A stretch of 5,124 nt of DNA from a virus (lineage: Duplodnaviria; Heunggongvirae; Uroviricota; Caudoviricetes). The notes beneath the pieces are model-generated. The model was given only the letters and a program-made list of their open reading frames with translations. It was not told the origin of the DNA and searched no databases. The stretch's first letter is position 1. Each line of letters opens with the position of its first letter. Below, one piece after another: positions 1,608-5,124 of the stretch. Position numbers and translations under genes: made by a program. Location of the stretch: IMG/VR virus record IMGVR_UViG_2695420708_000002; one strand, given 5' to 3'.

Positions 1608-2105
1608 ATGAAATCATTAACCCTCTTCAATCAACCAATTCGTATCGGTGAAGATGGCATGATCTGCCTCACTGATATGTGGAAAGCCAGTGGTAAAAGT
1701 GAATCTGAATCGCCTTACCACTACCTGCGAAACAAGCAGACCAAAGAGTTCTTAGCCGAGCTGGAGAAAAACCACGAATCTGTGGTTTTTACTGAGCGCG
1801 GTGTACACGGTGGAACATATGGCGGGAAGTTTGTTGCTTACGATTATGCGGCTTGGTTAAACCCCGGGTTCAAGTACGCGGCCTATAAAGTCCTCGATGA
1901 CTACTTCACCGGAGAACTTCAGCATCGCAACAGCTTAAGTGCGCAGCTCAACATGAAATGTCATGAATTTGACCAGAAGAAAGACATGGCGAGCTTCTGC
2001 GGACAAGGGCTGGCAGCATGGCGCTATACGAAGCCAGTGTTGGTCGCTGAGATTAACTCCCTGGCTAACCAGCTGCAGATTACGATCCCCGGGCTTCCGG
2101 GATGA
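1608..2105 (+). CDS. KilA-N domain-containing phage protein (putative DNA-binding / antirepressor-like), 165 aa
   Basis: The N-terminal ~100 aa follow the remembered KilA-N pattern (IRIGEDGMICLTDMWKASGK ... LRNKQTKEFLAELE ... GGTYGG ... AYDYAAWLNPGFKYAAYKVL). Family assignment is from memory, not a profile search. Stop TGA overlaps the next ATG (ATGA at 2102-2105). Confidence 0.6.
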   Translation: MKSLTLFNQPIRIGEDGMICLTDMWKASGKSESESPYHYLRNKQTKEFLAELEKNHESVVFTERGVHGGTYGGKFVAYDYAAWLNPGFKYAAYKVLDDYFTGELQHRNSLSAQLNMKCHEFDQKKDMASFCGQGLAAWRYTKPVLVAEINSLANQLQITIPGLPG

Positions 2106-2359
2106 GTGATCATGTTATTGAATGCGCCTCCAGAGCGGGGCGCGACTTCTCAGAGTTCATGAAAGGCGAGAAGGGCATGATGGAAGCATTGGCCTCGGTG
2201 GATGAGTTTGGCGAGCAGCTGCGCCTCAACGGCTGTGTCAATCATCACTTTGTTAGCTACATGATGCGGAACTCGATCATGCAGGCATTCATGGACATGG
2301 CAAAAGCCGAGAGGAAAGAAGAGCGCCGGCGTAAGCGAGCGGAAGCAAAAGCGAAGTAG
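2102..2359 (+). CDS. Hypothetical small protein (85 aa), Met-rich with a basic Lys/Arg C-terminal tail; translationally coupled to the KilA-N gene
   Basis: ATGA start/stop overlap with the upstream gene; C8, C45, H48, H49 could form a metal site; C-terminus KAERKEERRRKRAEAKAK. No recognisable family. Confidence 0.5.
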   Translation: MSDHVIECASRAGRDFSEFMKGEKGMMEALASVDEFGEQLRLNGCVNHHFVSYMMRNSIMQAFMDMAKAERKEERRRKRAEAKAK

Positions 2360-2784: not shown

Positions 2785-3057
2785 TAGACTGGCCCCCTGA
2801 ATCTCCAGACAACCAGTATCACTTAAATAAGTGATAGTCTTAATACTAGTTTTTAGACTAGTCATTGGAGTACAGATGATTGATGTCTTAGGGCCGGAGA
2901 AACGCAGACGGCGTACCACACAGGAAAAGATCGCAATTGTTCAGCAGAGCTTTGAACCGGGGATGACGGTCTCCCTCGTTGCCCGGCAACATGGTGTAGC
3001 AGCCAGCCAGTTATTTCTCTGGCGTAAGCAATACCAGGAAGGAAGTCTTACTGCTGT
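2785..3057 (+). mobile_element. IS2 (IS3 family) remnant: left terminal inverted repeat plus the 5' part of orfA; the rest of the element is deleted
   Basis: Starts TAGACTGGCCCCCTGAATCTCCAGACAACC..., matching the remembered IS2 left end; continues into insC coding sequence; similarity stops abruptly after CTGCTGT at 3057 (IS2 is about 1.3 kb when complete). Confidence 0.85.
2876..3057 (+). pseudogene. insC: Truncated IS2 transposase orfA (InsC), N-terminal ~60 codons only
   Basis: [61 protein letters not shown] matches the remembered InsC N-terminus (HTH region). After 3057 the reading runs into unrelated Rz-derived sequence and stops at 3085. Confidence 0.8.
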
Positions 3058-3420
3058 AAGCGCGACAAAAACGCAAGAGAACTGAAGCTGGCGAACGCAA
3101 CCATTACTGACATGCAGCAGCGCCAGCGTGATGCTGATGCACTCGATGCTAAATACACGAAGGAGTTAGCTGATGCGAAAGCTGAAAATGATGCTCTTCG
3201 GCGCAAGCTTGATAATGGTGGTCGGGTGCTCGTCAAAGGAAAATGCCCTGTGCCATCCTCAGCCGAAACCTCCAGCGCCTCCGGCATGGGCAATGATGCC
3301 ACCGTCGAACTCTCTCCAGTTGCTGGACGAAACGTTCTCGGTATCCGGGACGGAATTATCCGCGACCAAACAGCACTGAGAACGCTTCAGGAATACATCA
3401 GGACGCAATGCCTTCGATGA
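3058..3420 (+). pseudogene. Rz: Second Rz (lambda-type i-spanin), 5'-truncated at the IS2 junction; N-terminal TMD missing
   Basis: In-frame translation from 3058 gives [51 protein letters not shown]..., close to remembered lambda Rz from about residue 37 on; C-terminus [11 protein letters not shown] parallels the first Rz ([11 protein letters not shown]). No start codon or TMD remains. Confidence 0.8.
3173..3379 (+). CDS. Rz1: Second Rz1 (lambda-type o-spanin lipoprotein), apparently intact, embedded in the truncated Rz
   Basis: ATG 3173 with SD AAGGAG (3160-3165) and 7-nt spacer; [21 protein letters not shown]... with lipobox VVGC; Pro-rich [11 protein letters not shown]; resembles remembered lambda Rz1. 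Likely non-functional in lysis without its Rz partner. Confidence 0.7.
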
Positions 3421-3594
3421 TAGCGATAATTTTACTCATCATCCTTCACATCTGGCTCTGTAGACAGGGTGGTGCTCACTTCTGGAGTGAATCCAGATTA
3501 AACATCTCATTGCTGATGCTTGATATTGAGCATTTTGCGCGCGGTAAGGGGCTGCGTTGAGATAAGAGCCAGTCATTACAAATACCAGGATTTA

Positions 3595-3617
3595 GCCTCG
3601 CATTCGCGGGGCTTTTT
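3595..3617 (+). terminator. Rho-independent terminator downstream of the second Rz/Rz1
   Basis: GCCTCGC (3595-3601) / GCGGGGC (3606-3612), loop ATTC, then TTTTT (3613-3617); same stem sequence as the terminator at 1439-1460. Confidence 0.45.
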
Positions 3618-3620
3618 ATT

Positions 3621-3748
3621 GCCATTACAAAAGCCACTTCCTACAGAGTGGCTTTGATAATGGCTTATACCCTACACGGGATAACTTAACTGATATCCCT
3701 TTTAACGGATAAAGGTATTCAAGCCTGACACATCATGCGCTGTATCGT
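3621..3748 (+). repeat. Copy 2 of the 128-bp direct repeat; uninterrupted, continues into unique sequence
   Basis: Matches 2657-2784 with about 4 mismatches by eye; begins right after the terminator T-tract. Confidence 0.8.
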
Positions 3749-4235: not shown

Positions 4236-4730
4236 ATGGATCGAGAGTTAAAAAATCTGACGCTGAATATCAGTCAACTGGCGGCACTGTCAGGTGTACA
4301 TCGCCAGACTGCTGCGGCAAGGCTGCAAAATCTACCCGTTGCAGGGGGGCATGAAAGCAACCTCAAGCTTTATCGGGTGGTTGATATTGTGTCGGCATTT
4401 CTGGCATTACCACCGCCGGTTGCAGAAGGCGAAATGGACGCGCATGAGCGCAAAGCCTGGTATCAGTCTGAACGTGAGCGTCTTAAGTTCGAACAGGAAA
4501 CGGCACAACTCATTCCGGCCAGTGATGTCAGACGGGAGTTTGCCATCTGGGCAAAAGCGGTCGTGCAGGTGCTGGAGACATTACCGGATATTCTTGAACG
4601 TGACTGCGGTCTGCAGCCTGCCGCTGTGAGCCGTGTTCAGTCCATTATTGATGATCTGCGCGATCAGATAGCCCTGCGGGTGACTGAAGCAGGTGCGGAT
4701 GATGAGGAGGAATTACAGCAGGAGGAGTAA
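4236..4730 (+). CDS. Terminase small subunit (Nu1-like, putative), 164 aa
   Basis: First gene after the cos-like site; SD GGAG at 4227-4230; N-terminal HTH-like NISQLAALSGVHRQTAAARL; acidic tail DDEEELQQEE; stop overlaps the next ATG (TAATG at 4728-4732). Function inferred from position and architecture, not from recognised sequence identity. Confidence 0.55.
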   Translation: MDRELKNLTLNISQLAALSGVHRQTAAARLQNLPVAGGHESNLKLYRVVDIVSAFLALPPPVAEGEMDAHERKAWYQSERERLKFEQETAQLIPASDVRREFAIWAKAVVQVLETLPDILERDCGLQPAAVSRVQSIIDDLRDQIALRVTEAGADDEEELQQEE

Positions 4731-5095
4731 TGCTGAATCAGGAAACCGCAAAGGCAGCACGAACCGATTCAGGTTATATCCTTCGCGCACCGAGACGAAT
4801 GCGGGTTGCTGATGCCGTTGCTCAGTATATGCGGGTGCCCATGGGGGCAGGGAACTCAGTCCCGTGGGATCCGCTGGTGGCACCGTATGTTATTGAGCCG
4901 ATGAACTGCCTGGCCTCGCGTGAATACGACGCAGTGATATTTGTTGGCCCGGCACGAACCGGCAAGACTATCGGCCTGATTGACGGCTGGGTGATTTACA
5001 ACGTGATTTGCGATCCTGCTGATATGCTGATTATTCAGATGACGGAGGAAAAAGCCCGCGAACACTCCAAAAAACGACTCGCCAGAATGAGGTAG
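4730..5095 (+). CDS. Terminase large subunit (GpA-like ATPase), N-terminal 121 codons ending at an in-frame TAG; possible pseudogene
   Basis: Walker A P-loop VGPARTGKT at the position expected for GpA-family terminases; translationally coupled to the small subunit. The ORF stops at TAG 5093-5095, far short of the ~640 aa expected; the same frame stays open to the window end. Confidence 0.55.
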   Translation: MLNQETAKAARTDSGYILRAPRRMRVADAVAQYMRVPMGAGNSVPWDPLVAPYVIEPMNCLASREYDAVIFVGPARTGKTIGLIDGWVIYNVICDPADMLIIQMTEEKAREHSKKRLARMR

Positions 5096-5124
5096 CCTGA
5101 GTTTAACGGACACTCCTTCCTGAA

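Follow-up and report, generated by a model that had tools for sequence, protein, structure and literature searches.

What is the segment of about 1.2 kb that separates the lysis genes from the packaging region in a 5,124-nucleotide stretch of a tailed-phage genome (IMG/VR record IMGVR_UViG_2695420708_000002, Caudoviricetes), and when would its genes be expressed? By the window we mean this whole stretch, and positions are counted from its first letter. An initial annotation, made from the letters alone, had described the segment as a moron carrying a translationally coupled pair of genes, one for a KilA-N-like protein and one for a small basic protein, and had named it the best candidate in the window for an uncharacterised system. 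Both open reading frames (ORFs) lie where that annotation placed them, and the coupling is seen in an ATGA overlap:

1608-2105, + strand: KilA-N + ORF11CD3 protein of 165 residues, HK620 hkbK type (Pfam, PHROG, AlphaFold2 model, substitution rates)
2102-2359, + strand: 85-residue protein, HK620 hkbL type, phrog_875 (unknown function), with three helices and a basic C-terminal tail

The pair is already catalogued as HK620 hkbK/hkbL (deposited in AF335538) with its function uncharacterised, so that of the claimed uncharacterised system only the missing function stands. It has been annotated in Shiga toxin (Stx) phages and in P22-like and HK97-like phages. PhiR49_1, for instance, lists the products as ‘KilA-N-ORF11CD3’ and a hypothetical protein, and in Stx phage 2851 the name given is kilA. 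HK620, Stx phages 1717 and 2851, PhiR49_1, ECP1 and Salmonella P22-like phages carry the same two genes at 92-100% nucleotide identity, in the same order, with the same ATGA overlap and in the same slot after Rz, and none of these copies has a recorded function (‘unknown’ or ‘hypothetical’). The copy in the window differs from them by an extra 255-bp insert and by its place in a prophage disrupted by insertion sequences (IS), and otherwise in nothing essential. Our search of the literature on hkbK, PhiR49, ORF11CD3 and KilA-N in morons or lambdoid phages found no functional study of the pair. The gene pair itself is thus ordinary, and the part of interest is its leader, in which a conserved hairpin sequesters the Shine-Dalgarno (SD) sequence of the KilA-N gene and which appears to be new. 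Our preferred reading, to which we give a probability of roughly 55%, is that of a late-transcribed, translation-gated cassette of the hkbK/hkbL type, encoding a KilA-N DNA-binding protein and a small helical partner from the Bro/Rha/KilA network; it would be one cargo among a larger set of cassettes that lack promoters and lie within late operons.

The leader has three elements that matter here, the second of which competes with the third:

1468-1485, + strand: small GC hairpin (ATGCGT-N6-ACGCAT), first element of the conserved leader
1494-1499, + strand: helix X (CACCGA), which pairs with X' (TCGGTG) at 1552-1557
1500-1600, + strand: long imperfect leader hairpin, whose 3' arm holds the KilA-N SD sequence AGAGUAGG at 1592-1599

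The long hairpin has a minimum free energy (MFE) of -48.7 kcal/mol, and the 150-nucleotide leader folds with a z-score of -2.8. The same architecture (a terminator, a spacer, the small hairpin, the long hairpin ending in AAAGG, and the ATG) is kept with different sequence in HK620, RAH1, phiEt88, mEp235 and an Enterobacter prophage. All versions have a GC stem of 4-6 bp with a loop of 5-7 nucleotides at the place of the small hairpin, though its sequence differs (e.g. GCGCA-TCTCA-CGCGC), and when folded singly nearly all of 21 variants have the long hairpin as their MFE structure. RNAalifold, applied to a plain MAFFT alignment, recovers 11 pairs, eight of them with compensatory changes. A covariance model (R1) built from HK620-type leaders only matches the window at 1496-1610 (53.5 bits, E 7.5e-11) and finds all other leader versions too. 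When 34 sequences are aligned, 94.2% of cells are paired, 27 of the 30 pairs have changed on both sides, and compensatory cells number 167 compared to 46.9 +/- 5.5 in shuffles (0/500 reach the observed value), counts that are inflated because this alignment was fitted to the model; sliding the partners lowers the pairing to 38-53%. Helix 1, where CCUUU pairs with the AAAGG of the SD sequence, is 97% paired and always includes the SD. Owing to the frequent G-U pairs and the far lower score of the reverse strand (134 vs 26 bits), the structure can be assigned to the sense RNA. Rfam 15 gives no match at E <= 1 over the leader of the window, HK620, P22, RAH1, phiEt88 or L096, the last being a low-GC phage locus considered below.

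X comprises the 6-8 nucleotides immediately 5' of the long hairpin and X' the 3' part of its apical loop, and the two are complementary in essentially every variant, in 11 distinct sequence versions. Column-wise counting is unsuitable for this pairing, as its register differs between leader versions in the model alignment, and we assessed it by permuting partners: the best X-X' pairing has a mean of 6.44 bp, compared to 4.79 +/- 0.16 bp with permuted partners. Since X-X' crosses the long hairpin, it must be an alternative fold or a pseudoknot. RNA that ends after X' folds into the X-X' domain in eight of ten variants, and the full-length hairpin is 6-20 kcal/mol more stable. We take these modelled folds for a candidate kinetic or factor-dependent translational switch, with one presumed ON state and a putative trigger that would shift the balance.

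The leader is not confined to this gene pair. Its model matches the region ahead of P22 rha with 55.3 bits (locus L308; P22 NC_002371, 2033-2147), and the leader of P22 rha is about 95% identical to that of the window over 117 nucleotides. Elsewhere in these late regions it stands upstream of an HNH_3+AP2 gene and of P22_AR_N+ORF11CD3 genes, and in a low-GC phage upstream of T5orf172 genes. A pattern scan of IMG/VR found at least 120 loci with the leader, and among the matches listed the genes behind it encode Rha, Rha+ORF11CD3, KilA-N, ANT and T5orf172 proteins. The version found in the window occurs in 75 phage records, preceding KilA-N genes, rha genes and a gene for an annotated homing endonuclease. 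One and the same leader version is found fused to different ORFs, and the similarity then breaks off near the SD. The model did not detect the leader in immI-type contexts, which are under Arc/Mnt control. One locus (L169) has the leader twice: the additional copy, at 3382-3477, is shorter, scores 59.4 bits and lies some 1.9 kb downstream of KilA-N, and the ORF behind it runs off the end of the locus.

The nearest characterised counterpart of the cassette is the Rha protein of P22 and phi80 (orf201 in P22). Its gene takes up the same late-operon slot, with the lysis genes on one side and terminase on the other, and Rha belongs to the same Bro domain network. Rha relatives carry ORF11CD3, but the N-terminal domain of Rha is Phage_pRha rather than KilA-N, and no 85-residue gene follows P22 rha. 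Rha has a phenotype: as cited in PMC4936722, phage growth is inhibited in hosts deficient in integration host factor (IHF), the protein being detrimental to lytic growth without IHF, which regulates rha. The leader also bears on how some of these genes are annotated. The annotated starts of P22 rha/orf201 (locus position 2076) and of the mEp235 KilA-N gene (GTG 2207; L084, leader 2154-2272) lie inside the leader hairpin, and the model puts the start codons 69 nucleotides (P22 rha, ATG 2145) and 63 nucleotides (mEp235, ATG 2270) downstream of them. P22 Rha and the mEp235 KilA-N protein are thus probably 23 and 21 residues shorter than annotated, and with the leader as a guide the starts of rha (orf201) in P22 and of the KilA-N genes in mEp235/HK022 would be re-annotated.

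More tentatively, and at somewhat less than even odds, the leader may represent a previously unrecognised class of bistable riboregulator together with a family of promoter-less late-operon cassettes in temperate enterobacterial phages, the cargo being Bro-network DNA-binding proteins or homing-type nucleases and the KilA-N/85-residue pair one such cargo. X-X' would open translation transiently and the hairpin would otherwise shut it, and the old IHF-dependent phenotype of P22/phi80 rha could act through this element. Few unexplained genes of temperate phages are as common as those for Bro, Rha, KilA and Ant proteins, and there are reports that some of these harm the phage or its host. A leader that hides the ribosome-binding site (RBS) and is shared between them suggests a common means of dosing, and it provides a handle for studying these genes, including the relationship of IHF and rha in P22 and phi80.

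What the cassette encodes is clear at the level of domains. The 165-residue protein matches KilA-N, as the initial annotation had proposed, over residues 9-101 (PF04383; 57.6 bits, curated gathering cut-off 23.8), followed by ORF11CD3 over residues 109-161 (PF10549; 50.5 bits, curated gathering cut-off 25), and it falls into phrog_129 ‘transcriptional regulator’. Structure prediction, which had been proposed for both proteins, gives models with no significant or informative fold match for either. The AlphaFold2 model of the 165-residue protein has a mean predicted local distance difference test score (pLDDT) of 84.5 and consists of an N-terminal beta/alpha domain and then a long helical hairpin (residues 86-156), the form in which the ORF11CD3 region is modelled. 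The Mbp1 APSES domain is the expected relative of KilA-N, and a Foldseek search with the KilA-N model returned it along with DdrC and winged-helix regulators, all as non-significant matches. Pfam finds in neither protein Phage_pRha (PF09669), P22_AR_N, Bro-N, ANT or a nuclease domain (HNH, GIY-YIG, LAGLIDADG etc.), neither has a toxin or antitoxin domain according to Pfam, NCBIfam and PADLOC, and there are no arc or mnt genes within the window. When homologues are aligned, differing KilA-N versions are seen on one ORF11CD3 and one KilA-N on other C-termini; such swapping of domains is typical of the ‘Bro network’, a concept taken from PMC10111431. The protein for which ORF11CD3 is named, orf11 of Pseudomonas phage D3, has the same KilA-N + ORF11CD3 arrangement in about 166 residues and is encoded among the head-tail connector genes of the late operon, but it is only 27% identical, with no 85-residue gene behind it and no detectable copy of the leader.

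The 85-residue protein matches only phrog_875, and no Pfam or NCBIfam family. Its model (pLDDT 93.2) has three helices, the last of 37 residues, and fold searches with it gave no informative match. The description of a small basic protein holds only in part: the whole is mildly basic (isoelectric point, pI, 8.7), the 25 C-terminal residues are strongly so (pI 10.5), and the first 60 residues are acidic (pI 5.4). The family is narrow, with 21 representative clusters at 50% identity within 1.84 billion proteins, and its named sources are all Enterobacterales. Its genes come after KilA-N+ORF11CD3 genes of the hkbK type, after a KilA-N+P63C gene in mEp235 (HK022 has the same 85-residue gene, where its record is unannotated), and at the end of P22-immI-like mnt/arc/ant operons, where Rha or Rha+ANT precedes; one relative occurs by itself behind the leader, and none of 52 other leader-associated genes sampled is followed by one. 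Distant relatives of the N-terminal part are fused to T5orf172/MUG113 domains. The family, for which there is no Pfam model, is a further and very narrow member of the Bro domain network, in which it occurs on its own, in coupling with KilA-N or Rha genes, or as a T5orf172 fusion. We considered whether the protein might be a specific partner of ORF11CD3 and rejected this, as it also follows KilA-N+P63C and Rha(+ANT) and comes after 0 of 19 sampled pRha+ORF11CD3 genes. A zinc site was likewise rejected: C8, C45, H48 and H49 are invariant in close relatives, but the cysteines are missing from distant ones.

That both genes are truly coding is seen from strong purifying selection: the ratio of non-synonymous to synonymous substitution rates (dN/dS) is 0.00-0.18 in the KilA-N gene, where dS reaches 0.48, and 0.09-0.21 in the 85-residue gene. 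Across the 82 loci first examined (L001-L082), the KilA-N gene, chiefly in codons 51-165, differs at 3-3.5% of sites on average, with pairwise dS to 0.48, and the leader and the 85-residue gene at just 0.5-0.7% or so; this mosaic divergence points to recombination inside the cassette or to strong constraint on the leader.

In what phase of the phage life cycle the pair is made can be approached from what lies upstream. A consensus scan found no sigma-70-like promoter on the + strand between 1407 and 1607, though non-consensus promoters escape such a scan. A candidate seen by eye in the leader of the HK620 version (TTCACA-N16-TATTAA) was rejected, as it is not conserved in other versions and the scan passes none. 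Two terminator-like hairpins lie 3' of Rz and ahead of the KilA-N gene (terminator scan and folding), and where the cassette sits in tail clusters a terminator precedes the leader there too. Because no promoter was found, the cassette is co-oriented with late genes behind terminators, and the SD lies in a conserved hairpin, expression in a lysogen appears unlikely. On the preferred reading, the cassette would be transcribed only by antiterminated late transcription during lytic growth. As the RNA emerges, X-X' would be the first fold to form and may leave the SD open to ribosomes; the long hairpin, being more stable, would later shut translation off, a gating that would keep a potentially harmful protein at low dose. 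Weaker suggestions are that the KilA-N protein binds DNA in a sequence- or structure-specific manner and forms oligomers via the helical hairpin of ORF11CD3, and that it might act together with the 85-residue protein as an antirepressor-like regulatory factor late in infection, with no role in lysogenic conversion. The neighbourhood hints weakly at such an antirepressor-like function, the link to antirepressor modules being that the 85-residue family closes P22-immI-like mnt/arc/ant operons. Over-production of P22 Ant in arc mutants blocks phage growth. Bro and KilA proteins have been described as lethal or toxic (PMC2701414), and the effect of Rha was mentioned above; these analogies suggest that Bro-network proteins may have to stay at low dose, which would fit a gating leader.

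Several points weigh against this reading, beyond the limits of the promoter scan and the inflated pair counts already given. DNA binding by this KilA-N domain is taken from family membership, the Mbp1/APSES and winged-helix matches of Foldseek being non-significant, and some of the predicted alternative folds do not leave the SD clearly free. A complex of the KilA-N and 85-residue proteins is deduced solely from the ATGA coupling of their genes, while the 85-residue protein is 94-95% identical between the window and mEp235 and the KilA-N proteins encoded upstream are 23% identical. KilA-N+ORF11CD3 genes also occur without the 85-residue gene, in phiEt88, D3 and one Vibrio phage.

When considering other explanations, the most familiar is the one proposed originally, a moron. 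In the sense of Juhala and Hendrix this is an extra gene unit in the late operon, with its own promoter and its own terminator; here the pair would be expressed from the repressed prophage and would benefit the lysogen by superinfection exclusion, BstA-like abortive infection or anti-defence. The segment is indeed a variable insertion, between genes that are adjacent in relatives and where lambdoid phages carry cargo. BstA is the one characterised KilA-N-like defence protein that we found, and it likewise has an N-terminal KilA-N-type domain and comes from temperate enterobacterial phages; it is expressed in its own right in lysogens, and there is a cognate DNA element for self-immunity. In phage BTP1, BstA is a prophage defence protein of 307 residues, whose second domain (~156-307) was inferred by the authors from homology and covariance (PMC8585504). 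This published architecture sets it apart from the protein of the window, which has 165 residues, an ORF11CD3 C-terminal half in place of that second domain, no promoter found and a place embedded in the late operon. PADLOC-DB 2.0 gave only a weak domain-level match of KilA-N to an unvalidated candidate, PDC-S22 (E 1.2e-8), and no meaningful match for the 85-residue protein (QatB, E 0.022). No promoter-like site was found upstream, where two terminators and an SD-hiding hairpin precede the gene, and the cassette is always co-oriented with the late genes, even within tail operons. Nothing points to the lysogenic-conversion, anti-defence or superinfection-exclusion role that had been suggested, and we regard a classic moron as improbable, although the insertion itself is real. 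A toxin-antidote-like pair, in which the KilA-N protein would be a toxin, as P1 KilA is reported to be, and would be neutralised or titrated by the 85-residue protein translated with it, seems to us just as much of a long shot. Two small overlapping genes would suit it, as would tight translational control of a first gene with a toxic product; Bro/KilA proteins have been noted as lethal to the host, and a screen by comparative genomics for gene pairs resembling toxin-antitoxin systems recovered repressor/antirepressor pairs (PMC2701414). However, the 85-residue protein is nearly invariant while its upstream partner switches between KilA-N+ORF11CD3, KilA-N+P63C and Rha+ANT, and this near-constancy argues against a partner-specific antidote; KilA-N+ORF11CD3 genes also occur without the second gene, and no known toxin or antitoxin domain was matched. 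The constancy suggests instead that the 85-residue protein may have a conserved target, either a host component or a feature common to these DNA-binding proteins.

The two remaining explanations concern the leader more than the proteins. The leader and its ORF could form a selfish cassette that spreads by recombination or a homing-like process and is tolerated without benefit to the phage, the leader lowering its cost. The free-standing homing endonuclease genes of T4-type phages (I-TevI, segB, mobE) offer a parallel, as they too are optional genes in an operon with the SD within a stable hairpin (PMC2988022), and the cassette shares with them the RBS in a hairpin and a sporadic presence between conserved genes, in this case at three unrelated late-operon positions. 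The same leader also stands ahead of HNH+AP2 and T5orf172/MUG113 (GIY-YIG-like) genes, and relatives of the 85-residue domain are fused to T5orf172. In T4, however, release comes from a late promoter inside the hairpin (PMC2988022), whereas here we see no conserved internal promoter and instead the covarying X-X'; a terminator lies upstream as well, the phages that carry the leader are temperate ones of the lambdoid or P22-like kind, and their cargoes are mostly not nucleases but DNA-binding proteins of the Bro network. Neither protein of the pair has a nuclease domain, and the dN/dS and dS values of the KilA-N gene indicate a maintained protein function, though selfish genes can show the same. 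We hold a purely selfish cassette to be rather unlikely. Alternatively, the leader could work as DNA, as a recombination linker or a binding site for a protein such as IHF, promoting module exchange or blocking transcription with no RNA switch involved. The joining of identical leaders to different ORFs with the break near the SD, the near-identity of the window's version with the P22 rha leader, and the regulation of rha by IHF, a DNA-binding protein (as cited in PMC4936722), would all be expected of such an element. Compensatory changes that keep the pairing over at least five sequence versions would not, nor would the G-U pairs, the strand-asymmetric model scores and the constant place of the SD in helix 1, and we give this explanation little credence.

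The proposal that the segment is an accessory module, as opposed to a set of conserved core late genes, is borne out by its distribution. In tblastn searches the KilA-N protein is found in 45 phage records and the 85-residue protein in 57. Of 5,426 complete E. coli genomes almost all have the flanks, and 389 have an intact copy of the pair. The two genes are neighbours in each of the 82 loci examined first, where they follow diverse Rz alleles and precede diverse packaging modules of both cos and pac type. Related prophages that lack the segment exist as well: E. coli TF5 has an empty site, with intact S, R, Rz, small ORF, terminator, element, cos and terminase, and so do many other genomes. 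The pair is also inserted elsewhere, between the major tail gene and the tail chaperones in Klebsiella phage RAH1, and between the tape-measure and Dit genes in an Enterobacter prophage, and in every context, tail operons included, it has the orientation of the late genes. Given the empty sites, the sporadic presence, the other insertion places and the purifying selection, the segment belongs with the accessory modules, mobile and functional, rather than with the core late genes. In the low-GC phage L096 (ENA contig k141_1548615, 3018-3652), the slot from lysis to terminase is occupied by a HicAB toxin-antitoxin pair, encoded on the other strand, beside a leader-driven T5orf172 gene, which makes the slot a general cargo hotspot.

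The borders of the cassette are narrower than the 1.2 kb (1461-2656) that had been read as one two-gene unit. That length is indeed interposed, but it is composite, with the cassette proper at about 1461-2358 and a separate insert behind it:

1437-1460, + strand: Rho-independent terminator with a 9-bp GC stem and U-run (fold), which ends the lysis cassette and forms the left border of the insertion
2361-2396, + strand: closing hairpin right after the 85-residue stop codon, 3' border of the cassette; -17 kcal/mol, z-score -3.0 (fold)
2401-2655, unstranded: extra insert of about 255 bp, outside the two-gene cassette, absent in PhiR49_1 and partly present in HK620
2656-2784, unstranded: first copy of the ‘128-bp element’, here 129 nucleotides; the second copy, 97% identical, is at 3620-3748
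3594-3613: terminator in the cassette-free second context, counterpart of 1437-1460 (terminator scan)

The cassette is taken to end near 2358 because in PhiR49_1 the stop codon of the 85-residue gene continues straight into the 128-bp element. The downstream hairpin that had been noticed is stable but has no U-run after it, and of the two hairpins in the 128-bp element the first is its homologue; in most contexts where the 85-residue gene ends the cassette, a GC hairpin comes after it. The extra insert is flanked by two copies of one hairpin (2359-2400 and 2657-2700), and the 54-residue ORF within it (2491-2655) has no family match in Pfam, PHROG or NCBIfam. At the junction of the two genes a 14-nucleotide sequence, TTCCGGGATGAGTG (2095-2108), includes both the KilA-N stop and the 85-residue start, and it is repeated exactly in this insert at 2617-2630. 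The chance expectation is about 0.05 such repeats in 5 kb; the second occurrence may be what is left of another cassette junction, or a coincidence.

The 128-bp element is present in both contexts, as had been described, and the terminator of the second context abuts its second copy. It is a conserved non-coding unit at the junction of lysis and packaging genes, with two hairpins, the second AT-rich; its fold has a z-score of -3.9, and its first hairpin (GCCATTACAAAAGCC...GGCTTTGATAATGGC) one of -7.0 when folded with the preceding terminator. It has no U-run on either strand and no Rfam match. The element occurs in cos-type phages and partly in pac-type phages such as HK620, and a related hairpin lies ahead of terS in phiEt88.

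The whole stretch is the late region of a lambdoid prophage, interrupted by insertion sequences, and the remaining genes are these:

239-454, + strand: holin S, lysis cassette
454-951, + strand: lysozyme R, lysis cassette
936-1406, + strand: Rz with embedded Rz1 frame, lysis cassette
4236-4730: small terminase (DUF1441) of the second context, followed by the start of the large terminase

After the 85-residue gene come the 255-bp segment, the 129-nucleotide element and the first 272 bp of IS2. This left end of IS2 (2785-3057) is placed directly after the element and is joined abruptly at 3057/3058 to the middle of an HK620-like Rz gene, different from the first, with which the second context begins; a 50-residue ORF, the terminator, the second copy of the element and the cos region follow. 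Two sister contigs (L009, L010) have a full IS2 at the identical site and then the cos region. The IS2/Rz junction has no match in IMG/VR or in the complete E. coli genomes, and is either a strain-specific deletion or recombination or an assembly chimera. Positions 1-48 of the window we take to be an IS1 end (the reverse complement of GGTGATGCTGCCAACTTACTGATTTAGTGTATGATGGTGTTTTTGAGG), and positions 5088-5124, within the large-terminase gene, presumably resemble an IS600-like end. A partial KilA-N protein that is 100% identical is named from Shigella sonnei, and together with the IS ends this suggests that the window comes from an IS-rich genome of the Shigella type.

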